64,000 nucleotides of DNA. Origin: Dehalococcoidia bacterium (GTDB taxonomy: Bacteria; Chloroflexota; Dehalococcoidia; Lucifugimonadales; JAGWBF01). A program made the translations under genes and the position numbers. The stretch spans positions 1,820,920 to 1,884,919 of the forward strand of contig OZ240206.1 of assembly GCA_965197405.1 (NCBI GenBank). The letters run 5' to 3'. Shown piece after piece: positions 1-21,451 of the stretch. The notes beneath the pieces are model-generated. The model had not been told where the DNA came from. It was given only the letters and a program-made list of their open reading frames with translations, and ran no database searches. Each line of letters starts with the position of its first letter. Within the stretch, counting starts at the first letter, position 1.

Positions 1-130
1 CGAGCGCAACGAGGCCGCCGCCATCATAGACTGGCGGTTCTCCACCCAGAGCCTGCCCTCGGCCACGACCGGGGGACGCTCGCAGTAAGCTCAAACATGT
101 ATATCCAATAGAATTAAATTGAAACGGTAC
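1..130 (+). mobile_element. 3' end of IS630-family element; transposase C-terminus frameshifted by a 25-nt insert
   Basis: Reads ERNEAAAIIDWRFSTQ, then after removing 50-74 DARSKLKHVYPIELN* (stop 120-122), like the IS630 C-terminal W-F-T---AR-KL---YP motif; ends GTAC followed by TA. Confidence 0.7.
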
Positions 131-138
131 TAGCTGTG

Positions 139-741
139 GGTAGTGTCTCGGTTTGCTTTATAATCAGCATAACAAAGAGGGGGTGGGAATAGGGTTGAGG
201 GTTCCACTTTATCAGTGATCGTGATAAGGCCCTCCCGCCAAACGTTCTGCCTCAACAATATAATCACTGGTTTCACGAATACGCCGTTCTGTTACTTCTA
301 TCGGGTCACAGATTCCTAAATAAAAGCACTCACCATGTAGAGAACCTTGCCTAGTATAATAACGACTTGACAATCTATCCACAGGAGGTGAGTCTTTAGC
401 CAGCTTATTTAGCTCCTGGGAAGTGATTGGTGATTTCTCAGGTAACTCCCCCGTCAAAGCAAGAATCAGGGCATCCGTAGCCCGCTTGGTCGCACACCAG
501 GCTTTCTCCGCTGCATCCCGAATATCGTTTGCTAACAAACGTTCAAGAGCAGAAGCATGAACAGCTTTAGCGTCCCTAAAAACGTCCGCCACTTCTGCTG
601 TTATCGTCATTTTATGCGCTCCTTGCACAATAATTATAAGAGTGTGGCATTGCAACACTGTAGTACAGTGGAATCACACCAGGAACTGTCAGGCGTTGCA
701 CTAGGGTGTCTTACCATCTAAATTCAAACTGAGACACTACC
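139..741. mobile_element. Non-autonomous inverted-repeat cassette (IS1-like ends) with passenger gene
   Basis: GGTAGTGTCTCGGTTTG at 139-155 vs CAAACTGAGACACTACC at 725-741 (16/17 inverted match); flanks TAGCTGTG / TAGCGGTG (7/8 direct repeat); AT-rich interior; no transposase. Confidence 0.75.
212..610 (-). CDS. PaREP1-like (HEPN superfamily) protein
   Basis: DIRDAAEKAW-AT...SLHGECFY pattern; ATG at 610. Confidence 0.65.
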   Translation of the reverse strand: MTITAEVADVFRDAKAVHASALERLLANDIRDAAEKAWCATKRATDALILALTGELPEKSPITSQELNKLAKDSPPVDRLSSRYYTRQGSLHGECFYLGICDPIEVTERRIRETSDYIVEAERLAGGPYHDH

Positions 742-1775
742 TAGCGGTGCTCCTCGCACCAGTCCTTCACCGCCCTGGGAATCTCCAGCAGGTTTTCCAG
801 CTTGCTGGCCAGGGGGATCGCGCATTCGGGGGCAATCATATCCACCCCCGCATCCATGCACCGGTATACCTCTTCCCGGACCTGTTCGGGGCCGCGGGCA
901 TACAGGGTTTCCGGGTTATTGACGTTGCCCACCAGACGGATGCGGCCAGCAGCGATCTCCACCGCCTTATGGGGGTCGTTCTTGGAGTCGAAGTGGAAGC
1001 AGGCCATACCGGACTGGGCGATGTAGTCCAGCCGGTCCAAGGTATTCCCGCAGATGTGCAGTATCAGTGGGCAGGGGATGCGCTCGACCATCTCCTGGTG
1101 AATCTCGAGCAGGAACTTGCGGTAATACTCACCGCTCACCAGGTCGCCGGTGGCGTGGTCGGGGAAAGTCAGCACGTCCGCCCCCGCCTCAATCTGGGCA
1201 TTGGCAAAGAGGACGGAAATCTCCTTCATCAGGTTTAGACACCGTTTGGTCTTATCGGGGTCGTCTATGGACATCAGCAGGAAGTTCTCGACGCCGAATA
1301 CGTGATACCCCAGGGTCCACGGCCCCATGGCCTTGCCTATAATGGCTACCTCGTCCCCGTACTCCGCCTTCAATATCTCCAGCGACTTGAGCACGCAGTA
1401 GTTGTCGGGGTGCTTCAGAAAGTCTTTCGGGATGTGAATGTCCTCCGGTCCCTTCCAGATGGGCCTGTACATGCGCACCGTCGGCCAGTTGTCCTTCTGC
1501 TCCCACTGCATCTCGCAGCCCAGCGCCGACGACTCCTGGATTATGGTAAAGACCGGCATGATGCTATCAAAGCCCAACTCGGTATACCCGGTGGCGGCCA
1601 GCCTGGCGTTCAGCTCCGGGTCGCGACAGGCATCCGGGAAAGGCGCATCCGTCAGGTCCATCAGCTCGACGGTGGCCACGCTGGTGGGATTGGATACCGG
1701 GGGCCGGTCCACGGGCTTCCCCGCAAGGGCGTTTAGCACCCGCTCTCGTGGCTTCATAGTCTCTTGGACCGGCAT
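741..1775 (-). CDS. MtaA/CmuA-family methyltransferase (UroD superfamily)
   Basis: M-PRERV-AL-G---DRPP start, GPWTL, LHICG, LVGNVN, APECAIP metal-binding motifs; GGAGG RBS. Confidence 0.85.
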   Translation of the reverse strand: MPVQETMKPRERVLNALAGKPVDRPPVSNPTSVATVELMDLTDAPFPDACRDPELNARLAATGYTELGFDSIMPVFTIIQESSALGCEMQWEQKDNWPTVRMYRPIWKGPEDIHIPKDFLKHPDNYCVLKSLEILKAEYGDEVAIIGKAMGPWTLGYHVFGVENFLLMSIDDPDKTKRCLNLMKEISVLFANAQIEAGADVLTFPDHATGDLVSGEYYRKFLLEIHQEMVERIPCPLILHICGNTLDRLDYIAQSGMACFHFDSKNDPHKAVEIAAGRIRLVGNVNNPETLYARGPEQVREEVYRCMDAGVDMIAPECAIPLASKLENLLEIPRAVKDWCEEHR

Positions 1776-1790
1776 AGCTCGCCTCCTCTG

Positions 1791-2114
1791 CTACGGGGCT
1801 TCAATGTGAATGACTTCTCCGCGTTTCACGTCGTGAAGGGCTTCCAGTACCTGAGGAATTAGCGGCCTCAAGTCACCAATGGCGTTCGTTTTCGCGGCGA
1901 GAACTATCGCTGCAACGTCCATTTCGGTTATGTTCTGCTCGTCTGGGATTCCCTGGTCGGCTGTAATGAGAACGTCGAAATCACTGCGGGCCAGCGCCAG
2001 AATCTCACCGTTGCGCTTGCCGTCCCATCCCATGTACTGAGCTGTCTGCACATCGTGCCCTGGCAGGTAGTGCCGCAACGGCTGAGGCATATTCTCATCG
2101 AATAGCAATCTCAT
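1791..2114 (-). CDS. DUF5615 PIN-like toxin (VapC45-like)
   Basis: MRLLFDENMP...HDV-T...MGW-G-NGEIL...DVLITAD. Confidence 0.8.
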   Translation of the reverse strand: MRLLFDENMPQPLRHYLPGHDVQTAQYMGWDGKRNGEILALARSDFDVLITADQGIPDEQNITEMDVAAIVLAAKTNAIGDLRPLIPQVLEALHDVKRGEVIHIEAP

Positions 2115-2559
2115 ACGCGACGCTCTCCAAAGCCTTTTTGGCTATTTCGAGTGCCTTTACAGCCTGCTCGCGTTTTACGGTCGGAAAGTGATTCAGGAAG
2201 ACGTCCAAACTATAACCGTATGCCAGATAGTCGAAGAGGTTCTTTATAGGCACACGCGTTCCCGCAAAAATAGGCGTCCCACCCACAGTATCCTCTCGGC
2301 TGTGAAACACTCCTTTCGCATTCTCGCGCACCCTCTTTTCGAACTCCTCCAACGCCTGCTCGCGGCTCACCGATGGGAAGTGGTCAAGGAACGTGTACAG
2401 GTTGAAACCAAGCTCCCGGTAGTTGAAAAGGTTCTCTACGCAAACGTCCGTTCCCTCGAACTTCGGCCCGTCTTCGATAATCCGAGGGCGGCACCGGGCC
2501 CCCTTTATCACTCTAACCGATGCTGTGCCTTCAGCCTCTGTCATGGATTGCTCCTTCAT
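2095..2559 (-). CDS. Tandem DUF433 antitoxin-like protein
   Basis: Two repeats of G-P-F-GT-V----LF-Y---G--L--FL-HFP-V-REQA; overlaps the PIN gene. Confidence 0.8.
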   Translation of the reverse strand: MKEQSMTEAEGTASVRVIKGARCRPRIIEDGPKFEGTDVCVENLFNYRELGFNLYTFLDHFPSVSREQALEEFEKRVRENAKGVFHSREDTVGGTPIFAGTRVPIKNLFDYLAYGYSLDVFLNHFPTVKREQAVKALEIAKKALESVAYEIAIR

Positions 2560-2632
2560 GGTTGTGGCAGTTATCTCAATGGCTCCGGATGGGGCGCTTA
2601 GCTGAGTCCATGTTACAAAAGCCCTCCCATGC

Positions 2633-3313
2633 CTACGTCGGCGGCGTGAATCCGGCCGTGCCCGTGGTGAGCTGGCCGCGCAGCGCTGCCGACTCCATCA
2701 TATTCTCAACAGCGCTGACGTTGCGAGCATAGGGAAGCAGGAGACGGGCCAGCTGGTCATGGCGATACCCACAGGGGAAGACCACCTCGGTGTCACTCAC
2801 CTGCTCCGCTTCGCCGTACCGTCTGAAACCCTGCACCAGCGCCCGCAGGCGCGCGGGTCTATTGGGGGCCTCTCCATCAGCCGATACCTCGTAGACCCAC
2901 TGCTCCCCCACCTCTCTGCCGGCGACGCTCAGCATGAGGGCGCTCTTGGTATCCTTCACTGAAACCTTACCTTCGGGGAGGGAGAGGTGGGGGTCCTTCT
3001 CCACCGCCTGCATCAGGAGGAACTTCAATGGCCGCGCGTGCAGGTAGCCACACTGGAACCTGGATTGATTTGGGGTCCCATCCACCGGCGTCAGGCCTCC
3101 CAGCGCCACCAACTGGTCTCGGATGCGCCGAATCCGCTCCTCGACTCCCGGCTTTTGGCTATAGGTCCAAATGGTAAATACGCCGTCCTTGACGTGAAGT
3201 CCGACGCTGATGTCCCGGAAATGGGGGTCCATCGGGACCAGCTCGACGCACCGCCCGTGCCGTTCGATGACGTCAGCTATCCGGATTGGGTCGGCCTTCT
3301 TCGTATCCGTCAT
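2633..3313 (-). CDS. Hypothetical protein with duplicated F-CGY-H motif
   Basis: 226-aa ORF with GGAGG RBS, co-oriented with methyltransferase genes. Confidence 0.65.
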   Translation of the reverse strand: MTDTKKADPIRIADVIERHGRCVELVPMDPHFRDISVGLHVKDGVFTIWTYSQKPGVEERIRRIRDQLVALGGLTPVDGTPNQSRFQCGYLHARPLKFLLMQAVEKDPHLSLPEGKVSVKDTKSALMLSVAGREVGEQWVYEVSADGEAPNRPARLRALVQGFRRYGEAEQVSDTEVVFPCGYRHDQLARLLLPYARNVSAVENMMESAALRGQLTTGTAGFTPPT

Positions 3314-3354
3314 GGTCCCGCATACCTCCCGAAGGTTCGCATAGCCCGGCCAAC

Positions 3355-4254
3355 CTATCCCCGCAGCGCCCTGGACAGCGCCCTGATATGGTCGGGGCCG
3401 GTCCCGCAGCAGCCGCCCACTATGTTAATGGACAATTGGGCCAACACCTCGAAACGCTCGGCCATCCATTCGGGCGTTTCGGGATAGACTATCTCCCCAT
3501 GCTCAATCCGGGGGATGCCGGCATTGGAGTGGACAATGAGGTAGCCATCGGTCAAGCCGCGCATCAGGCGGCCCAATTCCAGCATAAGCTCGATGCCGTT
3601 CCCGCAGTTGGTCCCGACCACGTCTGCGCCGGCCTCTCGCAGTCCGGTGACAGCCCGCTCAGGGGAGACGCCCATCATGGTGAAAAACCCTCTCGGCCCT
3701 TTGTCAAAGACCATCGTGGCCATCACGGTCAGTCCGGTGTTCTCCTTCGCTGCCCTGATCGCCAGACTCGCTTCCTCCAGGGAAGTCATGGTCTCGATGA
3801 CGACGGCGTCGGCCCCGCCTTCCTCCAGCGCCGTGGTCTGTTGGACAAAGGCGTCCAGCATATCGGCTTCGCTGACATCGCCCAGTGGTTCGAGAAACTC
3901 TCCCGTAGGCCCCACGGAGCCGACCACATAATGACCGGGCGGAGCAGCGCTGCGGGCGTGTTGCGCGGCCAGCAGGTTGAACTCACGCACGCGATCTCCA
4001 TACCCGTATTTCCTGAGCATGAACACGTTGCCGCCGAAGGAGTTGGTCAACACCATGTCGGACCCGGCAGCGAAGTAAGCAGCCGCCATGCCCCTCACTA
4101 TATCGGGGTGGCTGGCGTTGAACTCCTCGGGACATCCGCCAGGCTCCAGGCCGTTGGACTGGAGGTAAGTCCCCGTAGCCCCGTCGGAGATGAGCGTCTC
4201 ACCGGCGGCGAGACGGGTCATTATGGAGGATGGTCTGTCGCCCATCAGGTCCAT
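3355..4254 (-). CDS. Homocysteine S-methyltransferase family (stand-alone MetH Hcy domain)
   Basis: DGATGT, GSVGPTG, IETM, GTNC, SNAGIP, GGCCGTGPDHI Zn motifs. Confidence 0.9.
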   Translation of the reverse strand: MDLMGDRPSSIMTRLAAGETLISDGATGTYLQSNGLEPGGCPEEFNASHPDIVRGMAAAYFAAGSDMVLTNSFGGNVFMLRKYGYGDRVREFNLLAAQHARSAAPPGHYVVGSVGPTGEFLEPLGDVSEADMLDAFVQQTTALEEGGADAVVIETMTSLEEASLAIRAAKENTGLTVMATMVFDKGPRGFFTMMGVSPERAVTGLREAGADVVGTNCGNGIELMLELGRLMRGLTDGYLIVHSNAGIPRIEHGEIVYPETPEWMAERFEVLAQLSINIVGGCCGTGPDHIRALSRALRG

Positions 4255-4592
4255 CCTTCGGTCCAGTAGTCAATTGCCCCCGGCCTGGTATCCCGCCGGC
4301 CCGAGAGGTGCAGAGCGCGGATTCTCTCTGCAAAATCTTCGGGGAACCCCTTGTTGAACCGTTCGACCGTCAGGGCAGCGACTTCCCGGGCGCCGCCTTC
4401 AACCTCCGTGTACTTGCCCCACTCCCAGGCCGCCAGGTATTCGTCGCTGCCATTGCTGCCTTCCAGCATGGAGAGCGCGTCCACCCCTTTCTGGAACCGT
4501 TGGTCAAGGGGCATGGACACCTGACCCGACCGGTCTTCGGCCTGGACCTGCACCGGTATCTCCCTCCAGTACATGACCCGCACTTTCGCCAA
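4245..4592 (-). CDS. 'Virulence factor'-domain small protein of corrinoid methyltransferase clusters
   Basis: YWREIPVQV...L--RFQ--VD...SDEYLAAW; TTG start after GGAGG. Confidence 0.65.
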   Translation of the reverse strand: MAKVRVMYWREIPVQVQAEDRSGQVSMPLDQRFQKGVDALSMLEGSNGSDEYLAAWEWGKYTEVEGGAREVAALTVERFNKGFPEDFAERIRALHLSGRRDTRPGAIDYWTEGWT

Positions 4593-4725
4593 TGTCGTCC
4601 ACCTCCCCGTATCCAGCGGTCATCATGCAGTCTCAACCTTGCCCAGGCTATATCCGGGTCCCACCGAGGTTGTATTGATTCCCAGTCTATCACATCCCCG
4701 GCTGGCAGAGTAGCCGCCAATACCC

Positions 4726-4909
4726 CAGCGCCTTTCCATTCTCGGAAAATGTCGTTCCGAGCACCCCATCCCGTCATTCTGAGGAGCGAAGCGACGAAGA
4801 ATCTAAAGACCTTGACGGGAGAATCGGCCTTGACTTGCAAAAGGGATTTTAGACCCCTCACTCCGTTCGGGGTGACGATTAAAAGTGGGGTGACAATGGA
4901 AAGGCCCTC
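4726..4909. repeat. Family A MITE-like repeat with REP-like doublet
   Basis: Ends CAGCGCCTTTCCATT / AATGGAAAGGCCCTC; core GTCATTCTGAGG..GAAGAATCT and AGACCCCTC..GGGGTGAC. Confidence 0.65.
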
Positions 4910-4998
4910 CGAGAGTAGACGTCAACACGGCAGAAAAGATAAGCAAAGGCCTGTGACATAGGCTATAATGTCAGGAGTTTGTGCGACGGGGGGTGCGT

Positions 4999-5868
4999 AT
5001 GCCAGAGGCGCTGATAAACGGGGTGAAGCTTTATTACGAGGTAACCGGGCAGGGATTCCCACTGGTGTGGTGCCACGAGTTCGCCGGGGGACACGAGAGC
5101 TGGGAGCCCCAGGTGAGGTTCTTCTCCCGGCGCTACCAGGTCATCACCTACAACGCAAGGGGCTATCCCCCCTCCGAGGTCCCTTCCGACCCCGGAGCCT
5201 ACTCCCAGGAGCAGTCCATAGCCGACCTCCACGGCCTGCTCCGCCACCTTGGGATCCAGCAGGCGTATATCGGTGGACTCTCCATGGGCGGCAACGTAGC
5301 CCTGAACTTCGGCCTCACCCACCCGGAGATGGCCCGGGCCCTGATAGTGGCCGCCACAGGCTCCGGCTCCACCAATCCGGAGCAGTTCCAGCAAGACGGG
5401 ATGGAGATGGCCAGGCGTTTGGAGTCCGACGGGATGGAGGCCGTAGCCGAGGTGTACGCCCAGGGGCCCACGCGAGTCCAGCTTCTGAGAAAAGACCCCA
5501 GGGGCTGGGAGGAGTTCAAGCGGGGGCTTGTGTCCCACTCGGGTACAGGCTCGGCCCACGTCTTCCGGGGCGTCATACTGAGGCGGCGCACTATCTTCGC
5601 CCTGGAGGAGAGTCTCCAAGCCCTCGATGTGCCCACGCTAATCATGACGGGCGACGAGGACGAGCCTTGCATCGAGCCTGCCGTCTTTATGAAGCGCCAC
5701 ATTCCCAGGTCTGGCCTTGTGGTCTTTCCCCAGAGCGGCCACGCCATCAACCTGGAGGAGCCTGACCTGTTCAACCGCGCCGTGCTGGACTTCCTAACTG
5801 CCGTGGAGGCCGACCGGTGGGCGACGCGGGACACGACGGCAGGGGCGTGGTCCCTGCTGCCGAGATAG
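4999..5868 (+). CDS. Alpha/beta hydrolase
   Basis: GLSMGG nucleophile elbow, GDED, SGHAINLEEP. Confidence 0.9.
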   Translation: MPEALINGVKLYYEVTGQGFPLVWCHEFAGGHESWEPQVRFFSRRYQVITYNARGYPPSEVPSDPGAYSQEQSIADLHGLLRHLGIQQAYIGGLSMGGNVALNFGLTHPEMARALIVAATGSGSTNPEQFQQDGMEMARRLESDGMEAVAEVYAQGPTRVQLLRKDPRGWEEFKRGLVSHSGTGSAHVFRGVILRRRTIFALEESLQALDVPTLIMTGDEDEPCIEPAVFMKRHIPRSGLVVFPQSGHAINLEEPDLFNRAVLDFLTAVEADRWATRDTTAGAWSLLPR

Positions 5869-5893
5869 CCGTCAATAGCCAGGCCTGCTCTAA

Positions 5894-6808
5894 GAAACTA
5901 TCTCAAAATAGGATTGGTCTGAAAGGGAGAAAACGTAGGGGGTTCGGTTAAGATAGGGGAAACGCATGTGGTGGTGGATGATGGGAAAGAGCGAGACTCT
6001 GCCAACGATATGGGAAATATCCGATGGCCTGTGGGAGCGAATCGAACCCGTGATTTTGGAGTTGGACCCGCCCAAGGCGAAGGGGCGCAAAAGGGTGGAC
6101 CAGCGCAAGATGCTGGAAGGGGTCATCTTCCGTATGCGCAGTTCCTGCCAATGGAACCACTTGCCCAAGGAACTGGGGGATGACAGCACGATCCACCGGA
6201 CCTTCCAGCGTTGGGTAGAGCGTGGGGTACTGGATGGCATCTGGGCTGCCTTGATCGAAGAATGCCAGGAATTGGACGGCGTAAACTGGGAATGGCAGTC
6301 GGCCGATTGCTCCATGGGAAAAGCGCGTTTTGGGGGGGCGCCATTGGACGCAATCCCACGGACCGGGGCAAGGCTGGGAGCAAGAAGAGCATCCTGGTCG
6401 ACGGGGCGGGCGGGCCACTGAGCGTGGTGGTGGCCGGAGCCAATGTCCACGATACGAAACTCCTTAGGCCGACGCTGGAGAGCATAGTGGTGGACCGGCC
6501 GGAAGGGGTCCAAAACCTGTGCCTGGACAAGGGGTATGACAATCCCACCGGCCACGTGACCGTCGCCGACGCCGGATACCAGCCTCATATCCGGCGTATT
6601 GGCGAAGAGAAATTGGACCAATCGGGCGAGAAAACCCACCCGGCCCGGCGGTGGGTGGTGGAACGCACCCTGGGCTGGCTGTCCAAGTGCCGGGCGATAC
6701 TGGTGCGCTACGATAAGAAGCCCACCAATTACCTGGGCCTGCTTCAATTGGCTTGCGCCCTTATCTGGTACCGCCGCCTATGGAGCCTCGCTAATTTGAG
6801 ATAGTTAC
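5894..6808 (+). mobile_element. IS5-family element (915 bp), transposase split by -1 frameshift at TTTTGGGGGGG
   Basis: TIRs GAAACTATCTCAAA / TTTGAGATAGTTAC, TAA duplication; ORFs 5966-6421 and 6211-6804 with DKGYD and RWVVERT. Confidence 0.92.
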
Positions 6809-6847
6809 TAAGCAGACCTGCACTGATATTCTCAGGAGGGGTGAAGG

Positions 6848-8101
6848 ATGGTCAACTCAAAGGCGCCGGTCACTGTGCTCCAGGCAGACCGGCTTTTCGA
6901 TGCTTGCGGAGGCCCTGCCAGGGAGAACATGGCGGTGGTAATCGAAGAGAACCGAATCAGGGAGGTCGTCCCGAAAGAGCAACTGGCCGTTCCCCAAGGG
7001 GTTGCCTGGGAAACCCAGGAGTTTCCAGAAGCCACGCTCCTCCCCGGCCTGATAGACTGCCATACCCATACCAACATGCCGGCCAACGGCCGCACCGGTG
7101 AAGACGTGATACCCGACGGCGATGATATACGGCTGCTGCGTTCCGTCAGGAACGTCCGCATGGCGCTGGAGTCCGGGGTAACCACCCTATGCGACAACGG
7201 CGCCTGGAACCACACCGCCTTCTCCCTGAAGGAAGGCGTACAGCAAGGGCTGGTAGAGGCGCCGCGCCTGCTGGTATGTGGCCGCCCCATAACCACGACG
7301 GGCGGCCATTGCTGGTTCATGGGTTCGGAGGCTGACGGTGTAGACGGCGTGCGGATGGCGACCCGCCAGCTTATCAAGGAGGGCGCTGACTTCATCAAGG
7401 TCATGGCCACCGGAGGCAGTACCCTGACCAGCGACCCCTATCACCCGGCATACACCGTAGACGAGCTAAGGACCATAGGGGAGGAGGCCCGCAGACGTGA
7501 CAGGGTTGTCGCTGCCCACTGCCGTTGCACCGAGGGCATGAGCCACGTCCTGGATGCCGGCTTCGACATCATCATTCACGGCTTCTTCGCCGATGAAGAC
7601 ACCACCAGAAGGTTCGACCCCGGGGTGGCGGAGCGAATCGCAAAGCAGGGCGTGTGGGTGAATCCGACTCTCCACATAGGAAGGTCCCGGATATGGCAGC
7701 TGAGGGAGAAGGAGGCCGCCGAGGGGCTGACGGGAGAGGAGAGGGACATGCTGAACACCTCGGAGGGGTTCTACCGGAGCAGCCTTGAAGAGTGCGCCCA
7801 GCTCATTGACTTGGGGGTAGGACTGGTGGCCGGCTCCGATTGCGGTTGGGGGGTCTTCCCCTTTGGGGAGTTCGCCCATGAGATAAGCGCCCTGGTGGAG
7901 GCGGGTCTGACGCCTACGCAAGCCACTCTTGCAGGCACGAGAAACCCTGCCGAAGCGTTGCGCATCCTGGACAGAGTGGGGACGGTGGAGGCGGGGAAGG
8001 AAGCCGACCTGCTGGTCGTGGCGGGCGACCCCACCGTGGACATTTCCGCCCTCACCAAAGTGGTGGCGGTGTTCAAGGCAGGCCGGCGGGTCGGGGTGTG
8101 A
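6848..8101 (+). CDS. Metal-dependent amidohydrolase (prolidase-like)
   Basis: PGLIDCHTH, GADFIKVMATGG, AGSD, GKEADLLV. Confidence 0.9.
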   Translation: MVNSKAPVTVLQADRLFDACGGPARENMAVVIEENRIREVVPKEQLAVPQGVAWETQEFPEATLLPGLIDCHTHTNMPANGRTGEDVIPDGDDIRLLRSVRNVRMALESGVTTLCDNGAWNHTAFSLKEGVQQGLVEAPRLLVCGRPITTTGGHCWFMGSEADGVDGVRMATRQLIKEGADFIKVMATGGSTLTSDPYHPAYTVDELRTIGEEARRRDRVVAAHCRCTEGMSHVLDAGFDIIIHGFFADEDTTRRFDPGVAERIAKQGVWVNPTLHIGRSRIWQLREKEAAEGLTGEERDMLNTSEGFYRSSLEECAQLIDLGVGLVAGSDCGWGVFPFGEFAHEISALVEAGLTPTQATLAGTRNPAEALRILDRVGTVEAGKEADLLVVAGDPTVDISALTKVVAVFKAGRRVGV

Positions 8102-8127
8102 CGCCACAACCGGGCAATCACGTCTTG

Positions 8128-8298
8128 GCATATGTTTCCAAATGCGTTGCCTTAGGGCCTCCTCTCCCTTGACGGGAGAGGATTGAGGTGAGGGTGGTGT
8201 GAAGGTGTCGGAACAACTCCCCCTCATCCCTCACGCTACGCTCAGGGCAGGCTCTAACCTTCTCCCGCTAGGGGAGAAGGCACTTTGGAAACGCCCTC
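8128..8298. repeat. MITE-like repeat with CCCCTCA-CCTAACC-TCTCCC hairpin doublet
   Basis: CCTCTCCC..GGGAGAGG..GGTGAGGG and CCCCTCATCC..AACCTTCTCCC..GGGAGAAGG; right end TTTGGAAACGCCCTC then TTA; left boundary approximate. Confidence 0.6.
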
Positions 8299-8301
8299 TT
8301 A

Positions 8302-9153
8302 GAGGGTGTGTGAGAAATCTTGGACATGTATTAGAATGGAGGTATGAAACGCAAACCATACCCCAGCGACCTGACCGACGAACAGTGGGATGTTCTGGCT
8401 TCCCTACTCCCATCAGCCAAGACTGGGGGAAGGCCACGTACTGTAGACCTACGGGAGGTCGTCAACGGCATTGTGTACGTTCTGCGCAACGGCTGCACGT
8501 GGCGAGCCATGCCGCATGACCTCCCGCCTTGGGGCACCGTGTGGTGGTATTTTCGGGAATGGAGACAGGATGGTACATGGGAACGAGTCCATGAGGCCCT
8601 GCGGCCCAAAGTTCGGAAGGCCGAAGGCAGCAACCCAACACCTAGCGCGGCCATCATAGACAGCGAGTCTGTTAAGACGACGGAAAAAGGGGGCCTCGTG
8701 GCTATGACGCTGGCAAGAAGGTCAACGGTCGAAAGCGACACATCATTGTAGATACCACGGGGTTGCTGCTGGCGGTGGTGGTGGTGCATCCTGCCAATAT
8801 CCAGGATAGAGATGGAGCGAAGCTGGTCATCGATAAATTGATAGGGCGGTTTCCCCGCATGAGGTTGGTCTGGGCCGATGCTGGCTATGCTGGAAAGCTG
8901 ATCGAGTGGGTCTGGGCCCTGACAGGCTGGGCGCTCGAGATTGTCAAGCGCCCCAGGGACAGCCACCACTTTCAGGTGCTGCCGCGAAGATGGGTGGTTG
9001 AACGAACATTCGCGTGGCTCAGCAGGTGCCGTCGGCTGAGCAAGGACTACGAAGCTCTGTCCGATACAACGGAGGCCTGGATCCACATAGCTATGATTCA
9101 TCTAATGCTCCGACGCTTAGCACCAACCTAATTTGAACTTATCACACACCCTC
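8302..9153 (+). mobile_element. IS5-family element (IS1031-like), transposase frameshifted at AAAAAGGGGG
   Basis: TIRs GAGGGTGTGTGAGAA / TTATCACACACCCTC, TTA on both sides; [41 protein letters not shown]. Confidence 0.92.
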
Positions 9154-9156
9154 TTA

Positions 9157-10081
9157 GAAACTATCTCAAAACAGCAGTCGGTGCAGACGGCGGTACCAGA
9201 GCAGGGCGCACGCCAGTTGAATCAGGCCCACGTAGTTGGACACCTTTTTGTCATAGCGAACCAGAATCGCCCGGCACTTGGACGGCCAGGCCAAGGTGCG
9301 CTCCACCACCCACCGCCGGGCCGGATAGCGTTTCACCCCGCTGGCGTCCAGTTTCTCCTCCCCTATGCGTCGAATGTGCGCCCGGTATCCCCCGTCAGCC
9401 GCCGCGGCTCGGCCCGTGGGGTTGTCATATCCCTTATCCGGGCACAAGTTCTCTGGGGATTTCCCAGGACCGCCAGGGCGGGCCACGACGATGTCCTCCG
9501 GTGTCTGCCGCAGCAGCTTGGTGTCGTGAACGTTGGCTCCGGCAACCACCACGCTCAGGGGGCCTCCGCTCCCCTCAACCAGAACACTCCGCTTGCTGCC
9601 TGCCTTGGCCCGGTCCGTGGGGTTGGGGCCAATCGCGCCCCCCCAAACAGCGCTTTACCCATGGCGCAATCCGCCGACTGCCATTCCCAGTTCACCCCGC
9701 CCAACTCCTGGCATTCTTCAACCAGGACGGACCAGATTCTCTCCAGCACGCCCAACTCCACCCAGCGCTGGAAGGTCCGGTGGATGGTGCTGTCATCCCC
9801 CAATTCCTTCGGCAGGCGGTTCCACTGGCAGCCGCTGCGCATCCGGAAAATGATGCCCTCCAGCATCCGTCTGGGGGCCACGCGTTGGTGGCCCGTGGCC
9901 TTGGGCGGGTCCAATTCCAGAATTACGGGATGAATCTGCTCCCAGAGATGGCCCGGAATCTCCCAGATCGTCGCCAATGTCTCGGCCTTTCCCATCATCC
10001 ACCACCCTACTGTGTTTACCCCATCTTAACTCGGATGGTGCCCCTCGATCCCGTCTCTACGCCACAATTTGAGATAGTTAC
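9157..10081 (-). mobile_element. IS5-family element related to 5894-6808, possibly decayed
   Basis: TIRs GAAACTATCTCAAA / TTTGAGATAGTTAC, TTA on both sides; ORFs 9555-9998 and 9166-9552; G7 run at junction. Confidence 0.9.
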
Positions 10082-10101
10082 TTAGGCGCGCCCGTACAAG
10101 C

Positions 10102-11868
10102 TCAACGGGGTATGATGGGCAGGACGACGTGGGAGGGGTATAGGGCCGAGTGGTACACCGTCTGCTGGGCCGTTTCCAGTTGTGTCCCCTCTCCAATAGG
10201 CCCGCCCGTGTTGGGATTGCGGTCGAACCGAGGGAAGTTGCTGCTGCTGATTTCCATTCTAATCCGGTGGCCCTTTAGAAACACGTTGCTGGTAGCCCAC
10301 AGATCAATGCTGTACTCGTACACTCGCCCAGGGGTGATGAGCCTGGGGCCGGATGCCGAACCCGCGTACCTGGCCCTAATCACGCCGTCCTGGAGGTTGC
10401 GGGCGTAGCCGTTGGGGTGCACGTCCACCAGCTTGGCGGTGAAGTCGGTGTCCCTGGCGGTGGAGGCGGCAAAGAGCTTGACGACCACAGGCCCCGTGAT
10501 CTCCAGGTCCCGCTCCAGGGGTTCCGATGTGTACACCAGCACGTCCTGGCGCTCCTCTGCGGGCCGTTGGTCGTAGACTCCCTGGGGTATGATGAGGGTG
10601 CAGCCTCCCAGGGTGGGCACGGGGTCTTGAGGGTCGTAGGTGTAGACGTCCGGGTGCTCATCGTCGGGGGGAATAGTGGAGAGGGTGCCGTTGCCGTGGT
10701 AGGTCTTGGCTGCACCGTTGCTGTGGAGGTAGTATCTCGTGTAGTGGGTCCTCGCCAGGGGCCATTCCTGCTCGTCCCTCCACCGGTCCTCTCCCATGAC
10801 GAAGAGGCGCACGGGAGGCTCCTCCATTATTCCCGTCTCCATGTCCTTCAGCCAGTAGTCGAACCAGCTGAGCAGATGGTCATGGAGTTGAATCATCGCT
10901 TCGGGGCCGAAGTCCGCCTCCCCCGTCCCCTGGGAGGTGGGGGACGTGTAGGGGCGCAGGTGGGCCCAGGGGCCGACGAGGAGCTTCTGGCCCATGCGGG
11001 CCTCGGGGCTGCCCCCGCGCTCCCTCATGCCTGCGAAGCCGCGTAGCGCCCCCTCCAGAAATATGTCGTACCAGGAGCTAACGTGGTACATGGGCACCCG
11101 GATGTGCTCCAGGTGCTTCAGAAGATTAAGGCGGGTCCAGTAGGGGCCATAGTCGGGGTTATCGAGGTAGTCCTCGAAGTAGGGGGCCGTCTCCTTGAGC
11201 TTCTCGACCCAGTCGTTGAGGGGCAGGTGGCGGTACCATTCGGGCGTCAGCGGCTGGGCGAAATTGTCCCCGTCCTGCACGTACTCATCCATCTGGGCCA
11301 GCAGCTGCCCCAGCCCCTTACGCTGGAGGGTGTTGCGTCCCTTGAAGATGGCGTAGGGGACCATCCACCCCCACTCCATTGCCCCGCCGGTGTGATAGAC
11401 CCAGCTGGAGTGGTAGTCAGCCGACGCCGAGACCGGGGCCATCGCCTGCAGGTGAGGGGGCAGGGGGTAGTTGAGGGCTATAGCGTACTGGGTCGCCCCA
11501 AGATAGGACTGCCCGGTGGTGCCCACCCGCCCATTGGACCAGGGGAGCCTCGCGGCCCACTCGACGGTGTCGTACCCGTCCTCTATCTCCTGGGTCAAGG
11601 GGTAATAGTCTTCCCCTTCCGAGTCGAAACGCGCCCTGCAGTCCTGGTTGACCACCACGTAGCCGTGGCGGGGGAAGAAGTTCACCGAGTGGTCGGGGTT
11701 CTCGGCGTATGGGTCCTTCCCGTAGGGGCCACGAGTCACCAGCACGGGGAAGCGACCGGGCGCATCCGGGCGAAATACGTCGGCGTACAGGGTGGTCCCG
11801 TCCCGCATCTTCGCCGGGACATTCCTCTCTCGGATGACCCCATACCTGGGCTGAGATTGCCTGGTCAT
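10102..11868 (-). CDS. CocE/NonD family serine hydrolase
   Basis: MRDGTTLYAD, RGPYGK, GQSYLG, GPWAH, SSNFPRFDRN. Confidence 0.92.
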   Translation of the reverse strand: MTRQSQPRYGVIRERNVPAKMRDGTTLYADVFRPDAPGRFPVLVTRGPYGKDPYAENPDHSVNFFPRHGYVVVNQDCRARFDSEGEDYYPLTQEIEDGYDTVEWAARLPWSNGRVGTTGQSYLGATQYAIALNYPLPPHLQAMAPVSASADYHSSWVYHTGGAMEWGWMVPYAIFKGRNTLQRKGLGQLLAQMDEYVQDGDNFAQPLTPEWYRHLPLNDWVEKLKETAPYFEDYLDNPDYGPYWTRLNLLKHLEHIRVPMYHVSSWYDIFLEGALRGFAGMRERGGSPEARMGQKLLVGPWAHLRPYTSPTSQGTGEADFGPEAMIQLHDHLLSWFDYWLKDMETGIMEEPPVRLFVMGEDRWRDEQEWPLARTHYTRYYLHSNGAAKTYHGNGTLSTIPPDDEHPDVYTYDPQDPVPTLGGCTLIIPQGVYDQRPAEERQDVLVYTSEPLERDLEITGPVVVKLFAASTARDTDFTAKLVDVHPNGYARNLQDGVIRARYAGSASGPRLITPGRVYEYSIDLWATSNVFLKGHRIRMEISSSNFPRFDRNPNTGGPIGEGTQLETAQQTVYHSALYPSHVVLPIIPR

Positions 11869-11953
11869 TTTACTCCTCCTGACTCCCCCGGTACGCTCCC
11901 GGCAAGGGCTGATTTCGGGTGGCGTTTTACGGCGCTTTCGGCCAGGACCGGCA

Positions 11954-13084
11954 TCAGCTGAGCCTGTGGACGGGGAATACCAGCTGCTTCAGCTGGTCAA
12001 CACTCTTTTCGGCGAAGCTCCTGGCCTCTCGACTCATGTCGTCCGGGACCGAGACGGGCATCCCGGCGTCCCGCAGCTGCTCCAACCCGTATTTCTCCCG
12101 GTGCAGGGGAGGAATCTCATCGGGCCATTCCCGACCCATCATTACCCCGTAAGCCAGAGTCCAGCACCGGGCCACCGCGCCCAGGTCGTACCCGCCCCCT
12201 CCCATAGCGAGCCAGGGCAGGCCCATCCGGGCGAACTCCCTCACCGCCTCGACAAAGCCCCGCGAGGACAGCAGCAGGTGAGTCAGAGGGTCACTGTAGT
12301 AGCTGTCAATGCCAAGCTGCGTGACCAGCACGTCGGGTTTGAAGGCTTGCACCAAGGGGGGCACTATCTCCCTGAAGGCCCAGAGGTAGGTGTCGTCATC
12401 CGTGTAGGGATAAAAGGGCAGGTTTACGGAGAACCCCCTGCCGGGACCGGAGCCTATCTCGTCCACGGAGCCTGTCCCAGGGAAGAGGAACCTGCCCGAT
12501 TCGTGGAGCGATACGGTCAGCACGCGCTCGGTGTCATAGAAGGCGTTCTGTACGCCGTCGCCGTGGTGAGCGTCAATGTCAACGTAGACGACCCTGAGAC
12601 CCTTGCCGAGGAGGTATTTTATGGCTACTGCCGGGTCGTTGAACACGCAGAAGCCGGAGGCGCTCCCGGCGGCGGCGTGATGCAGGCCGCCGGAGATGTT
12701 GAAGGCCACGTTAGCTCGCCCGCCGTCCACAAGCTCCGCCGCCACGAGGGTCGCCCCCGTGCTCAGGGCAGCAGCCTCGTACATGCCTTCGTATATGGGG
12801 TTATCCCCCCCCGCGCTGAAGTTGAACCTGGAGGAAGCGGGCACCCTTTCGCCGCGGCTAAAGCTCTTCACCGCCTCCACGTACTCGAGGTCGTGGAGGG
12901 CGCATATCTCCTCATCCGTTGCCGGCCTCGGCTCCACAAGGGTGGAGTTCTCTCCATCGAAGGCGTTGTAGGCTTCCAGAAGCTCATAGGTGTGCTGGAG
13001 TCGCACGGGCTTCATGGGGTGGTCGGACCTGAGGACGTGGCGGGAAAGGTCGTTGTTGTAAACAAAGGCGGCTTCTCTGTTCAT
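11954..13084 (-). CDS. acuC: AcuC / histone deacetylase family protein
   Basis: HPMKP-RL, GGLHHA, GFCVFND, DIDAHHGDG, FPGTG, GGGGY. Confidence 0.88.
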   Translation of the reverse strand: MNREAAFVYNNDLSRHVLRSDHPMKPVRLQHTYELLEAYNAFDGENSTLVEPRPATDEEICALHDLEYVEAVKSFSRGERVPASSRFNFSAGGDNPIYEGMYEAAALSTGATLVAAELVDGGRANVAFNISGGLHHAAAGSASGFCVFNDPAVAIKYLLGKGLRVVYVDIDAHHGDGVQNAFYDTERVLTVSLHESGRFLFPGTGSVDEIGSGPGRGFSVNLPFYPYTDDDTYLWAFREIVPPLVQAFKPDVLVTQLGIDSYYSDPLTHLLLSSRGFVEAVREFARMGLPWLAMGGGGYDLGAVARCWTLAYGVMMGREWPDEIPPLHREKYGLEQLRDAGMPVSVPDDMSREARSFAEKSVDQLKQLVFPVHRLS

Positions 13085-13560
13085 AGCTCTCCATTCCGAA
13101 GCTGGGCCAGGTCCCTGCGCATATTGGCCCAATGGCTGCCCGGCCAGTATATCTTGCGACAGAGGGGGCATTCCATAAACCCTTCCTGTGTCTCATAAAC
13201 GTAAGGAGGGACCTGCTCCTTCACTGACTCCCTCGAAATGTCCACCAGTGACTCGTTGCAGCGGATGCACCTGGAGAACTCCCTTGAGCTATCGAGGTTG
13301 AGGGAGCTGATTACCTGGCGAAGCTGGCCCTTCAAATCGTCGTGCTGGACCAGCACCGCCTTCAAACGGCCGGTGGTCACAAGGCGTCTCCCGGTGATGC
13401 CGCTGTCCCTGGTCACAATTATGCGGTCTTCTCGAAGGGCAATACGCACCAACTCGTTGTCTTCCATGTTGGACGGGAAGAGGGCATCGTAGCCCATAAC
13501 TCGCAGCCACTTGGCAAGCCTGCCAACATTCAGGTCTACGACAAATCTGGGCTCGTTCAT
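13081..13560 (-). CDS. Mut7-C RNase domain protein (PIN plus Zn ribbon)
   Basis: LAKWLR-MGYD, RI-VTRD, RCIRCN...CPLC-KIYWPGSH. Confidence 0.88.
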   Translation of the reverse strand: MNEPRFVVDLNVGRLAKWLRVMGYDALFPSNMEDNELVRIALREDRIIVTRDSGITGRRLVTTGRLKAVLVQHDDLKGQLRQVISSLNLDSSREFSRCIRCNESLVDISRESVKEQVPPYVYETQEGFMECPLCRKIYWPGSHWANMRRDLAQLRNGEL

Positions 13561-13877
13561 AGCTGCATGCAGGGTTGTTTCATTGTCACCCCGAGCGAAG
13601 CGAGGGGTCTAAAGACCTGGCTGGGCACGGTGAGCCGGGCCTCCTTGTTGAAGATGGGAAAGCGCAGCACCAGAAAGAGATAGTCGTCGTAGTCGTCCAC
13701 CTTGGGAAGCTGGACCCGGCTGAGGCAGTCATCGAGGGCGAGGGGATGAAAATCGTAGGTCCTCTTGAGGTACTCCATCTCCGCAAGGGTCGGCATCTCC
13801 ACGTCGAGCCAGGAGACGGACTCGTGTGCTATCTTCTTTACGCTAACTTGTTGTTGGGCCTGCCCCAGCGTAGTCAT
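13557..13877 (-). pseudogene. corA: Truncated CorA Mg/Co transporter (N-terminus only)
   Basis: WLD, FHPLALDDC...QLPKVDDYDDYLF; homology stops at the repeat 13570-13617; no GMN motif or TM helices. Confidence 0.8.
13570..13617. repeat. Half copy of family A MITE
   Basis: CAGGGTTGTTTCATTGTCACCCCGAGCGAAGCGAGGGGTCT matches reverse complement of the end at 53521. Confidence 0.75.
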
Positions 13878-14033
13878 AGTTTACCGGCTATCTATCGGAG
13901 AGATTCGAGGGACGGACGACACATGAACGCCAGCGTGTCTGCGCTAGTTGAGTCTAGTGAAATTCCGCCCGGCGGTCAAGGTGCACGCGTCCCTTCGCGT
14001 ATTCTGGAATACGCATATAGTATACTACTAGCA

Positions 14034-14190
14034 CAGGGGCTTCAATTCTCGACGCCAGATGAATACAGGCCCCCGCCGCGTGTCATTCCGAGCGCAGCGA
14101 GGAATCTAAAATGCTTGGATAGCAGCACGCCTAAGAAGGCAAGGACTTTAGACCCCTCGCTTCGCTCGGGGTGACAATCGAAAGGCCCTG
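14034..14190. mobile_element. Family A MITE
   Basis: Ends CAGGGGCTTCAATT / AATCGAAAGGCCCTG; flanks ACTACTAGCA / ACTGCTAGTG; close match to 28692-28872. Confidence 0.75.
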
Positions 14191-14241
14191 ACTGCTAGTG
14201 TGTCTCTGTTGGTATTGAATTTCTTTACTGAAGGAGGGTGC

Positions 14242-14616
14242 ATGACTACGGATGAGAAACAGGCGTACATAGAGAAGATTCAGAGGGAGCGGGGCTATGT
14301 GCTTGAGATGCACAGGATCATGGTGGAAGCGGACCTGGAATGGGTCAAAGCCTACGACCCCTTCATAGAGGCCAGCTACACGGGCCAGCGACTCCTCGAC
14401 CGCAAGACGAAGGAGCTACTACAGATTGCGGTGGAGTCGGCCCTGAGGGCGGACGTGGAGCAAATCCAGGCCCATGTGAGGGTGGCCCTGAACAACGGCG
14501 CCACGCCCCGGGAGATACTGGAGGCCCTGCAATCGGTGGTGATGCCTATGGGTATGCTGGCCTTCCGGCGGGGCCTCCAGGCCCTGGTCGCCGAGGTGGA
14601 CATCCAGGAGATATAG
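14242..14616 (+). CDS. Carboxymuconolactone decarboxylase (CMD/AhpD-like) protein
   Basis: LDRKTKELL...HVRVALNNGATPREILEAL; AGGAGG RBS. Confidence 0.85.
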   Translation: MTTDEKQAYIEKIQRERGYVLEMHRIMVEADLEWVKAYDPFIEASYTGQRLLDRKTKELLQIAVESALRADVEQIQAHVRVALNNGATPREILEALQSVVMPMGMLAFRRGLQALVAEVDIQEI

Positions 14617-14708
14617 ATACGGGGTAGATAAAGGACGCTCCGGCTGCCCATTCGCTCCTGACAAAAGCCAAGAGAAAGACTGGCCCGGGGTATAGGGGCC
14701 GGCCCCGT

Positions 14709-15491
14709 CTATTCCTCGGCCACGACATAGTTTCTGAGGGTGCCGATGCCGCTAATCTCCACCTCTATCACGTCCCCGGACGTCATGTTCTCCGTAGCGC
14801 CCTCGGTGCCCATCCACAGCACGTCGCCGGGATAGAGGGTTATGTACTTGCTAATCTCGCTGATGTAGGTTGCCGTATCGAAGATCATGGTCCCGGTGTT
14901 GAACTGGGAGATGGTCTTGCCGTTCAACCGTATGGTGGTCTCGAGGTCGGTCGGGTCCAGGCCGGTGGCGATCCAGGGACCCATAGGCTTGAAGGTGTCG
15001 GAGTTCTTGGCCCGCCACATGGTACGGTCATCCCGCTGCCAGGCGCGCTCGCTGATGTCGTTGCCTATGGTATAGCCCAGGACGCAACTCAGGGCATCCT
15101 CCTTCGATAGATGCTTGGCCTTCTTGCCGATAACGGCTACCAGCTCTCCCTCGTACTGGAACTCCCCCGAGGAGTCCTTGGGCATGATGATGTTCTCCTC
15201 GTGGGCTATGATGGCGTTTACAGCCCTGTACCCCACGTCCGCCTTCTTGGGTATGTTGGGCTGCGTACCCGCATGCTGCGCCGCCCAGGTGATATGCTCC
15301 GGGTAATTGATGCCTGCGGCATAGAATGTGGGCGGGATAACGGGCGCCAGCAGCTTCACCTCGCTCAGAGGATGGCTGGTGGAGGTCGCAGTATAGGTCG
15401 CGAAGGGACTGCCCGAGACCTCGGCCACTCTGTCCTCCTCTATTATCCCGTAGCTGACCTTTTGACCTGCCTGGAAGCGGCACCATTTCAT
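14709..15491 (-). CDS. Fumarylacetoacetate hydrolase family protein
   Basis: GINY-EH, YEGELVAVIGK, GYTIGNDIS, AKNSDTF, TLYPGDV. Confidence 0.92.
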   Translation of the reverse strand: MKWCRFQAGQKVSYGIIEEDRVAEVSGSPFATYTATSTSHPLSEVKLLAPVIPPTFYAAGINYPEHITWAAQHAGTQPNIPKKADVGYRAVNAIIAHEENIIMPKDSSGEFQYEGELVAVIGKKAKHLSKEDALSCVLGYTIGNDISERAWQRDDRTMWRAKNSDTFKPMGPWIATGLDPTDLETTIRLNGKTISQFNTGTMIFDTATYISEISKYITLYPGDVLWMGTEGATENMTSGDVIEVEISGIGTLRNYVVAEE

Positions 15492-15694
15492 AGTCTTTTC
15501 CTCTCTATCTGGTCTATCTGGCGAGTCCCGACGCGCAAGTTGGAAGCATTTCCCATTTTCACACTCAGCCCCCCTGCGGTCAAGCGGTGTGGCAGATAAC
15601 CAGCGCTTGACGGCCCTGGGAGGCGTCACTACAATTGCCCTCATCAGGCCCCCATCCGGCCCCGTCAGTCCCATCAGTGAGGAGGTGGCTTCAC

Positions 15695-16528: not shown

Positions 16529-16589
16529 CGGCCAGGCGGGGGGCTTCGCCAAAGCAGGGCGGGTACGGCGGGTGTGCCCGCCGCGCGGT

Positions 16590-17904: not shown

Positions 17905-17922
17905 CCCTGTCTTCCCCCAAGA

Positions 17923-18558: not shown

Positions 18559-18704
18559 GGATACCTCTCACGGGACACGCCGACCTGCTGGTGGAAGTCG
18601 TCATGAGGGGCGGCGGGTCCTGGCCTCACTACCGGCCCTCCCGGGCTGGTCCCTTCAACCATTGGCATTGGCAGCTTTGTCATGGGTCGTTAGCATTGTG
18701 GACT

Positions 18705-21433: not shown

Positions 21434-21451
21434 TATGACACATTCTATGAC

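Follow-up and report, generated by a model that had tools for sequence, protein, structure and literature searches.

What is the small hairpin that interrupts a transposase gene at the very start of this stretch of Dehalococcoidia DNA, and how did it come to lie there? The stretch, referred to here as the window, comprises 64,000 nucleotides (G000:C1:1820920-1884919) of the source genome G000, a single contig of 3.38 Mb with 60.6% G+C that is 94.6% complete. An initial annotation of the window had noted that the nucleotides at 50-74 break the frame of an insertion sequence (IS) of the IS630 family, and had listed eight such units, in this gene and in other repeats. A unit, as defined here, consists of the tag AGCYTG, a GC hairpin of 4-7 bp, and a run of G. 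The units are inserted precisely and without duplication of the target, mostly in the loop or at the 3' shoulder of hairpin repeats and behind a 5' CAG. Part of them are in protein-coding genes, to which the 24-nt form adds eight residues in frame. The main hosts are repetitive extragenic palindromes (REPs) of the type tagged with CGTC, e.g., CGTCATACCCGCGAAAGCGGGTATCC at 47812-47830, and inverted doublets that resemble REPINs (REP doublets forming hairpins), e.g., 14034-14190. We think it probable that the units form a family of tiny non-autonomous mobile modules (net 22-25 nt, mostly 24), which represent a third REP-like tag class and are moved by an enzyme that acts on single-stranded DNA.

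Seven of the eight units listed for the window are real. The sequences at 50-74, 28828-28852 and 54621-54645 (plus strand) and at 8228-8253 and 21379-21403 (minus strand) read as they had been quoted. The two variants with an AGCTTG leader are genuine as well, but their starts were one base off: they occupy 16672-16695 and 25732-25755 (both minus strand), not stretches from 16671 and 25731. The eighth, at 16763-16787, had been bounded wrongly; the AGTTTAT leader ascribed to it is a misreading of the flank AGTTTATCCTG, and the AGCTTG-led stretch at this place is 16753-16776 on the minus strand. The window contains AGCCTGCC 15 times, where 4.57 occurrences are expected (sd 2.0, maximum 9; none of 100 shuffles reached 15). 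With Rfam 15 at the gathering score, the window yields three tRNAs only, and no family matches the unit. The units and the empty forms of their hosts are as follows.

1-133, plus strand: 3' end of an IS630-family element of 1264 bp (genome positions 1819789-1821052); the transposase C-terminus is encoded by 2-49 and 75-122.
50-74, plus strand: the IS630 unit, AGCCTG-CCCTCGG-ccacga-CCGGGG(G); net 25 nt, junction slide 0/1.
8228-8253, minus strand: unit of the weak 4-bp-stem subfamily, AGCCTGCCCTGAGCGTAGCGTGAGGG, in a hairpin repeat after GGGAGAAGGTTAG and before GATGAGGGGGA; 25-nt gap against 32958-33086.
14034-14190, plus strand: empty REPIN-like doublet of two inverted CGTC-type REPs; target CGCTC/GGGGTGAC at 14163-14175.
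16672-16695, minus strand: unit AGCTTG-TCTCCGT-gcaa-ACGGGGA in the GAAA loop of a CGTC-type REP, CGTCATACCCGTGA/unit/ACGGCTATCC; 22-nt gap against 47783-47901.
16753-16776, minus strand: AGCTTG-led related module AGCTTGTCGAAGTGCCCCGTTCGG in a REP loop; no simple insertion when compared with the canonical REP.
21379-21403, minus strand: unit AGCCTGCCTTGAGCTTGCCGAAGGG, host site as for 8228-8253; 24-nt gap against 32958-33086.
25732-25755, minus strand: unit AGCTTG-TCCCCGT-gaaa-ACGGGGA in a CGTC-type REP loop, CGTCATGCCCGTGA/unit/ACGGGTATCC.
28828-28852, plus strand: unit AGCCTG-CCCCTG-gcttgaa-CAGGGG at the border between loop and 3' arm in the second REP of the REPIN-like doublet 28692-28875.
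32958-33086, minus strand: empty host of the units at 8228 and 21379; target GGTTAG/GGTGAGGGGG at 33033-33048.
47783-47901, plus strand: empty host of the units at 16672 and 25732; target in the loop, CCCGCGAA/AGCGGGTATCC, at 47812-47830.
54621-54645, plus strand: unit AGCCTG-CCCCTG-gcttgaa-CAGGGG at the equivalent site in the diverged doublet copy 54485-54665.

A census of the whole genome by regular expression finds 206 units, which make up 0.15% of the genome and fall into several subfamilies.

AGCCTG-CCCCTG-gcttgaa-CAGGGG: 51 copies.
AGCCTG-CCCCGTA-N5-TACGGGG: 46 copies.
AGCTTG-TCCCCGT-gaaa-ACGGGGA: 38 copies.
Weak-stem AGCCTGCCYTGAGC... type: 19 copies.
AGCCTG-CCCCCGC-gaaa-GCGGGGG: 15 copies.
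AGCCTG-CCCCTGC-gaaa-GCAGGGG: 13 copies.
AGCCTG-CCCYCGG-cyacga-CCGGGGG: 8 copies.
Others: 16 copies.

The tag reads AGCCTG or AGCTTG on the strand of the unit and CAGGCT or CAAGCT on the other. It is constant, whereas the stem sequence varies by subfamily and yet stays complementary. Without any pre-selection, GGGG follows 9-13 nt after AGCCTGCCCC in 137 of 172 genomic occurrences, and the pattern GAGCCTGCCCCN{9,13}GGGG has 167 matches in the genome and none when read backwards. All three inner pairs of the stem are Watson-Crick pairs in 15 of 32 distinct inner sequences, with nine different stem triplets, compared to a mean of 2.1 and a maximum of 7 in 1000 permutations. In nine chosen units, a set picked as hairpins and hence leaning towards this result, 96.8% of the cells are paired and three of the seven pairs change on both sides, which none of 500 shuffles reached. 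The two ends of the unit, AGCYTG and the G run, are not inverted repeats of each other, and there is a single hairpin. The units are dispersed and mostly solitary; some same-strand neighbours lie 63-69 nt apart in composite repeats. Among variants at public loci (L135, L090 and L130), one carries the tag on both arms and forms a perfect 13-bp palindrome (AGCCTGCCCCGTA...TACGGGGCAGGCT), and in others part of the unit is duplicated in tandem.

The case for insertion is made by filled and empty copies of the same host. Each of the uninterrupted host repeats named in the initial annotation (14034-14190, 32958-33086 and 47783-47901) shows a clean gap of 22-25 nt when aligned pairwise with filled copies. 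One of these alignments joins 28692-28900 to 14034-14200 with 151 of 166 positions identical and a single gap, 24 nt long, at the unit; 16600-16800 (minus strand) shows one gap, of 22 nt, against 47783-47901. The remaining three contain smaller gaps elsewhere in addition to the one at the unit, which is 24 nt for 54485-54700 against 14034-14200, 25 nt for 8170-8310 against 32958-33086 (77/98 identical), and 24 nt for 21320-21460 against the same host (72/92 identical). Genome-wide, an empty-like paralog is present for 156 of 417 candidate units, which collapse by flank to 52 contexts. In 38 of these the tag is AGCYTG, the gap is 20-25 nt, and the ambiguity of the junction is 0-2 nt. A junction that slides by so little leaves no room for a target duplication. 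These 38 contexts, together with 8-aa gaps in paralogs of IS630 and TraG-like proteins (see below), bear out the earlier claim of true insertions without target duplication. Both junctions share 1-2 nt with the ends of the unit, AG on the 5' side and GG on the 3' side.

The units in protein-coding genes interrupt conserved protein motifs that are intact in homologs, which indicates insertion and not deletion. In the IS630 element at the start of the window the transposase reads ...IDWRFSTQ, then the 25-nt unit, and then DARSKLKHVYPIELN* in another frame, the break being 16 codons before the stop. HTH_29/HTH_32 were matched in this filled copy, and DDE_3 in an empty sister (L142, genome positions 1428150-1429650). 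The unit is present in all seven copies of this IS630 element, and the one sister copy that is empty, L142, is 83% identical and has the unbroken end ...IDWRFSTQDARSKLKHVYPIELN; removal of 50-74 had been said to restore FSTQ-DARSKL, and this is the end that the empty copy shows. An identical 26-nt unit is shared, at a homologous site, by three IS630 families whose mutual identity is only 74-77%; it adds PVSSTGQA in frame between ..EAH and L[IV]A.ACS; compared with L142, 121 of 158 positions are identical and there is one gap, of 8 aa. A second unit, carried by one of the three families, separates VVLDN from LNTH in the DDE core, and in a DDE_5 (IS701-like) transposase PYPVRGRL stands between RWQLEVT and FQEV. 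In a DDE_Tnp_1 (ISAs1-like) transposase a unit between IPSHDT and FSRVF splits the frame (net 23 nt, counted by hand) in 10 of 10 copies, which are ~99% identical, and in three copies of a 76%-identical sister family.

Genes other than transposases are invaded as well. Of four paralogous genes for TraG/VirB4-like ATPases, those at genome positions 1984897, 1992306 and 1257166 are filled and the one at ~2042400 is empty; aligned paralogs are identical at 643 of 687 positions (94%), with a single gap, of 8 aa, at the unit. In the three filled genes the unit sits at the same codon, with stems that differ yet are compensated (GAA/TTC, GCA/TGC). The presence of four such paralogs suggests several conjugative or integrative elements. 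In a helicase-like open reading frame (ORF), a unit contributes SLPRTGHG in frame. In other genomes a unit that adds SLPRTGYG in frame (translated by hand) lies in an ORF whose flanks, ...HIK / ELFVFV..., match an IS66-family transposase (L140) of the source genome. Two candidates from a hairpin screen, AGCTTGCTGTGG... in IS66 and AGCCTGCCCCGGTACATGGTGGGG in a 580-aa ORF, turned out to be native coding sequence and not units; the 580-aa ORF is one we take to be a methylmalonyl-CoA-mutase-like gene. Several of the IS elements read in two frames: the IS630-family elements at genome positions 1312300-1313700 (L136), 1309350-1310700 (L138) and 1819700-1821100 (L141) switch near ...LKK / LKPWKKKEW, which is either a break or a site of frameshifting. 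An additional -1 shift is required at EYQR/NGT in the L141 family, and the DDE_5 element (L137) changes frame near TDL/QLEP. All four two-frame elements are multi-copy, with identities of 97-99%.

In the hairpin repeats, the insertion points are in the loop (GAA/A, TCAA/G), at the border between loop and 3' arm (CGCTC/GGGG), or a few bases into or behind the 3' arm (GCA/GGAG, GGTTAG/G). The plan of CGTC REPs, as given in the parts of the survey of tagged REPs cited here, consists of the tag CGTC, AT at the foot of the stem, a stem of 8-9 bp, a loop of 4-5 nt, and a CCA tail (PMC3733652). We tallied the 5' flanks of 115 AGCCTG contexts from the source genome plus 135 public loci. The consensus is CAG: among the 115 contexts, G occupies position -1 in 81, A position -2 in 79, and C position -3 in 53, against a background of 34% G, 25% A and 24% C. 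This CAG is complementary to the CTG of the tag. In REP loops, AGCTTG units are preceded by CGA or TGA, which can pair with TTG if G-T pairs are allowed; this pairing is suggestive only, as the AGCTTG units there are all in one host type.

CGTC-type REP hairpins (GTCAYYCCGAGCG.AGCGAGGRRTCTAA and kin) are dense in the window at 4772-4883, 14034-14190, 20027-20162, 37359-37461, 53383-53521 and 56064-56207; inverted doublets, which fold into a long hairpin, are frequent among them. Rfam matches to the doublet at 14034-14190 are chance hits to miRNA precursors only, in keeping with its long-hairpin character. At 16753-16800 (minus strand), and in about 14 other genomic copies, a module with CCTGAGCTTGTCGAAGGG (complement ...PFDKLR...) takes the place of the REP loop; in other genomes this module is itself a host of AGCCTG units (cccttcgacaagctcag/unit/gcgaacgg).

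The units are not confined to the source genome. Of 41 genomes from the same family or order, 24 contain the pattern GAGCCTGCCCCN{9,13}GGGG, with 0-1 matches in the backwards control; the source genome has 167 matches, G007 has 81 and G028 has 34. The related genomes contain further stem variants, e.g., CCCCGGA/TCCGGGG. An exact 25-mer, AGCCTGCCCCGTACNNGATACGGGG, is found at no fewer than 135 loci (≥135) of a collection of species-representative genomes. Most of the records are labelled Dehalococcoidia or Chloroflexota; about 38 of the loci are titled otherwise (counted by titles), and these include Syntrophaceae, Desulfatiglans, Methylococcales, Nitrosomonadales, Nitrospira, Saprospiraceae, Brocadiaceae, Entotheonella and Bipolaricaulota. 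Four cultured strains of Pseudoxanthomonas also carry the 25-mer, which rules out a binning artefact at least for that genus. In other genomes, too, the unit lies in the loops and shoulders of REPs, and at one locus (L019) it is reversed and nested within the loop of a second AGCCTG unit. Phages were considered as carriers and set aside, as only two loci in a collection of viral contigs contain the 25-mer. The initial annotation had named assembly artefacts as a possible undoing of its claim; the recurrence of the same units in independent assemblies and in cultured isolates shows that they are not.

We also mapped four public sequencing runs to positions 1-20000 of the window. This yielded short-read contigs of many related organisms, which break at repeats. 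Among the 12 of 30 read-mapping rows listed, none leaves out 22-26 nt at any unit site; a loose end at position 45 and a replaced stretch at 8194-8254 resemble empty copies from elsewhere and not alleles. Fourteen public runs hold part of the window, four of them metatranscriptomes labelled sponge metagenome. The stretch 17000-26900 is found in four 'sponge metagenome' metatranscriptomes and in DNA runs of three further organisms. The lineage thus recurs in several studies.

Did the units arrive many times, or were they copied along with their hosts? A BLAST search with one REPIN-like doublet gives 321 matches in the genome. From these we took 48 near-full-length empty copies (at most 8 gaps), added 49 filled copies found by pattern, left out the remaining matches, and calculated a FastTree phylogeny of the 97 copies with the unit columns removed. 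On this unrooted tree, in which six of 91 branches are well supported, the filled state changes 17 times, and well-supported branches force at least four of these changes; shuffled states give a mean of 32.5 and a minimum of 25. Over all 134 columns, two of the empty copies match one filled copy exactly. Two clades, of 18 and 10 copies, are filled throughout. Insertion, or precise loss, recurs on the tree, and units once inserted multiply passively too, with the IS or REPIN that carries them.

The initial annotation had likened the units to REP substrates of HUH enzymes, i.e., the REP-associated tyrosine transposases (RAYTs, also TnpA-REP). The anatomy, with an unpaired 5' tag, a hairpin and a short tail, is indeed that of tagged REPs; the association with a RAYT did not hold up. 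Y1_Tnp (PF01797) has no match in the source genome, nor in any of the 41 genomes compared above, which include the 24 with units, whereas six of 14 controls were matched. The unit is therefore not a RAYT-associated REP, and the REPIN-like CGTC family of the source genome likewise exists there without its usual mover, since the genome has no RAYT. Profile searches of the source genome did not find TnpB, Cas1, Relaxase or Rep_trans either; for Y2_Tnp the control was without a match anywhere. The list of neighbours of the units shows no gene bracketed by them in the manner of a REPtron.

Other enzymes were considered as movers. The source genome has two copies of IS110 and a single group II intron (genome positions ~2009900-2012600; L163 4912-7581) with a 602-aa ORF containing RVT_1, maturase and HNH domains, and with domains V/VI at L163 7483-7581 (65.6 bits in Rfam). 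This intron adjoins a DUF6094-type methyltransferase and a ResIII helicase-like ORF. In a cross-tabulation made by hand, RVT_1 is found in 13 of 24 unit-bearing and 2 of 17 unit-free genomes, DDE_3 of IS630 in 10 of 24 and 6 of 17, and IS110 in 14 of 24 and 7 of 17. IS110 was rejected as the mover: the ends of both copies are unrelated to the units, and the element is missing from G028 and G035, which have 34 and 13 units. IS630 was rejected as well, as G005 and G006 have 43 and 36 matches to DDE_3 and no units. The association with reverse transcriptase is a lead, not evidence: related genomes do not count as independent cases, small ones have neither feature, and 11 of those with units show no such enzyme. 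A resemblance to domain V of the group II intron was likewise dismissed, the shared GAGCC and the CCGNA/UNCGG stem being too short to count. Cumulative GC skew, AT skew and the strand bias of long ORFs indicate no replication origin or terminus in the genome.

A number of observations weigh against the reading put forward at the outset. No mover has come to light, and the read-mapping rows listed contain no polymorphic filled/empty allele at a unique locus. The wider set of AGCTTG units is noisy in its flank (A 7, C 9 and G 6 in 22 contexts), and the idea of guide and target leans mainly on one tag type. With an unrooted and poorly resolved REPIN tree, gain and loss are inseparable, and much of the copy number is hitch-hiking, as most copies are at one site in few host families. 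The 1-2 nt shared at the junctions are also what template switching would leave. An alternative that we regard as unlikely is that the units spread among host-repeat copies by homologous recombination or gene conversion (e.g., a hairpin cut in its loop and repaired on a filled copy as template), with rare new contexts created by microhomology-mediated template switching and no dedicated enzyme. The fixed site in few host families, the interleaving of filled and empty copies among near-identical REPIN doublets, the microhomology at both junctions, and the failure to find a candidate transposase all agree with it. However, identical units occupy a homologous site in IS630 families that have diverged to 74-77% identity, the same boundaries recur at unrelated coding sites, the 5' CAG consensus is strong, and the same 25-mer resides in many different hosts across phyla; template switching, moreover, is expected to leave ragged ends.

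That the units are substrates of an HUH Y1 enzyme (RAYT/TnpA-REP) that is too divergent to be detected, or was recently lost, is very unlikely. Tag and hairpin, the lack of a target duplication, loop targets prone to be single-stranded, and the complementarity of CAG and CTG all have parallels in the biology of IS608 and of REPs and RAYTs, but PF01797 is missing even from the genomes with 167, 81 and 34 units while being found in the controls, the units are solitary and not inverted REPIN doublets, and no unit-flanked gene was seen. Spread through RNA and a reverse transcriptase, e.g., the group II intron protein, appears highly doubtful: the skewed distribution of RVT_1 and the intron of the source genome speak for it, whereas genomes without the enzyme have up to 11 units each, the distribution is that of related genomes of unequal size, poly-A tails and target duplications are lacking, and the similarity to domain V extends over a few bases only. 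Furthermore, we know of no route for a 24-nt RNA. The least probable alternative, to which we give hardly any credence, is that the units are not mobile, the long forms being ancestral and the empty ones deletions, or that they are artefacts of assembly. Nothing specific favors it, although precise loss is possible at individual repeat sites; it is contradicted by the interrupted protein motifs that homologs preserve, and by the many independent assemblies and cultured isolates in which units occur.

A mobile module moved on single-stranded DNA, the reading we prefer, behaves most like the small dispersed repeats (SDRs) of cyanobacteria, which Elhai et al. reportedly described in 2008 as 21-27 nt long and for which we know of no mover. 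SDR5 inserts between the third and fourth base of HIP1 in the account consulted (PMC4390886), and SDRs are reported only from Nostocaceae in the portion of the literature cited here (PMC5861425). Both kinds are very small dispersed modules inserted precisely into other repeats, in our case with a net 22-25 nt in REPs, doublets and ISs; our units are found in Chloroflexota, with one subfamily in many phyla. In IS200/IS605 elements and their miniature derivatives, the palindrome-associated transposable elements (PATEs), two subterminal hairpins that differ from each other go together with a Y1 transposase, and IS608 recognizes its target through a guide sequence. The units share with them the absence of target duplication, a specific short sequence on the 5' side of the insertion, the presumed recognition of a hairpin, and a possible pairing of a short sequence 5' of the hairpin foot with the target; they differ in having a single hairpin, with 24 nt in all, where PATEs derived from IS200/IS605 have two subterminal hairpins and TnpA(Y1), and in a source genome without Y1 or TnpB. 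Rickettsia palindromic elements (RPEs), ~100-150 bp long and confined to Rickettsia, are also palindromic repeats inserted in frame into protein-coding genes, whereas our units are 24 nt (8 aa), mostly in transposases, and distributed across phyla. The units have neither IS-matching terminal inverted repeats nor target-site duplications as miniature inverted-repeat transposable elements do, and they are dispersed and not in the regular arrays of CRISPR repeats, Cas1 also not being found.

The comparison with tagged REPs is the closest in structure. In the parts of the survey by Di Nocera, De Gregorio and Rocco (2013) cited here, these form two superfamilies, GTAG and CGTC; they are 20-40 bp long, consist of a hairpin with a conserved, unpaired tag on one side, fall into subfamilies that differ in the stem, and occur in hundreds of copies in several phyla, sometimes inside ORFs and some of them inside small target palindromes (Thermomicrobium roseum GTAG-23), the CGTC type having no associated transposase (PMC3733652). 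Apart from the two superfamilies, these features are shared by our units. They differ in the tag, AGCYTG in place of GTAG or CGTC, and AGCCTG, AGCTTG and their complements are absent from the text of that survey (PMC3733652). They also differ in being singletons and not head-to-head doublets, in being inserted into CGTC-type REPs, and in the lack of a RAYT; of the features of REP/REPIN-RAYT systems, the units have the tagged imperfect palindrome and have neither a GTAG or CGTC tag, a RAYT gene, nor the inverted doublet. AGCCTGCCCCGTAC had no match in a text search of a collection of papers, which is the sole basis for calling the family undescribed and does not extend to the supplements of the REP survey.

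Elsewhere in the window there are two pairs of diverged duplicated segments with 77-80% identity, 9185-9775 with 58817-59395 and 61654-62586 with 62625-63557; the second pair is tandem and probably represents paralogous genes. Directly behind the end of the IS630 element, 100-740 is A+T-rich, with a 148-aa ORF on the minus strand at 212-658.

The best reading of these data is that AGCYTG is a new tag class of REP-like, SDR-like mobile hairpins, beside GTAG and CGTC. A trans-acting enzyme would read tag and hairpin on single-stranded DNA and would paste the unit into unpaired target DNA, as the TnpA of IS200/IS605 and RAYTs do with their hairpins; the CTG of the tag may pair with the CAG of the target, like the guide sequence of IS608. 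The enzyme would not be a Y1 or RAYT transposase recognizable through Pfam. A bolder version, which we consider rather improbable, is a cross-phylum single-strand "nano-transposon", which would have all its cis requirements within 24 nt (a 3-nt CTG/TTG guide to CAG/CGA, a hairpin handle, and a G-run end) and whose mover would come from an enzyme class not yet linked to transposition, or from host housekeeping. If this were true, that machinery might also be behind the CGTC REPs, which lack a transposase and host the units in their loops.

How REP-like hairpins, among them CGTC REPs and SDRs, move without a RAYT is the open question with which the 2013 survey closes, in the part cited here (PMC3733652). 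The family provides clean material on that question, with dozens of filled/empty pairs in one genome, constant ends, and a CAG target. Its insertions into proteins of known intact form are useful in the same respect, and a 25-mer common to cultured Pseudoxanthomonas and uncultured Chloroflexota makes experiments possible. For annotation, the units mean 8-residue peptides (PVSSTGQA, SLPRTGYG, PYPVRGRL) in real proteins, split transposase frames, and spurious ORFs.

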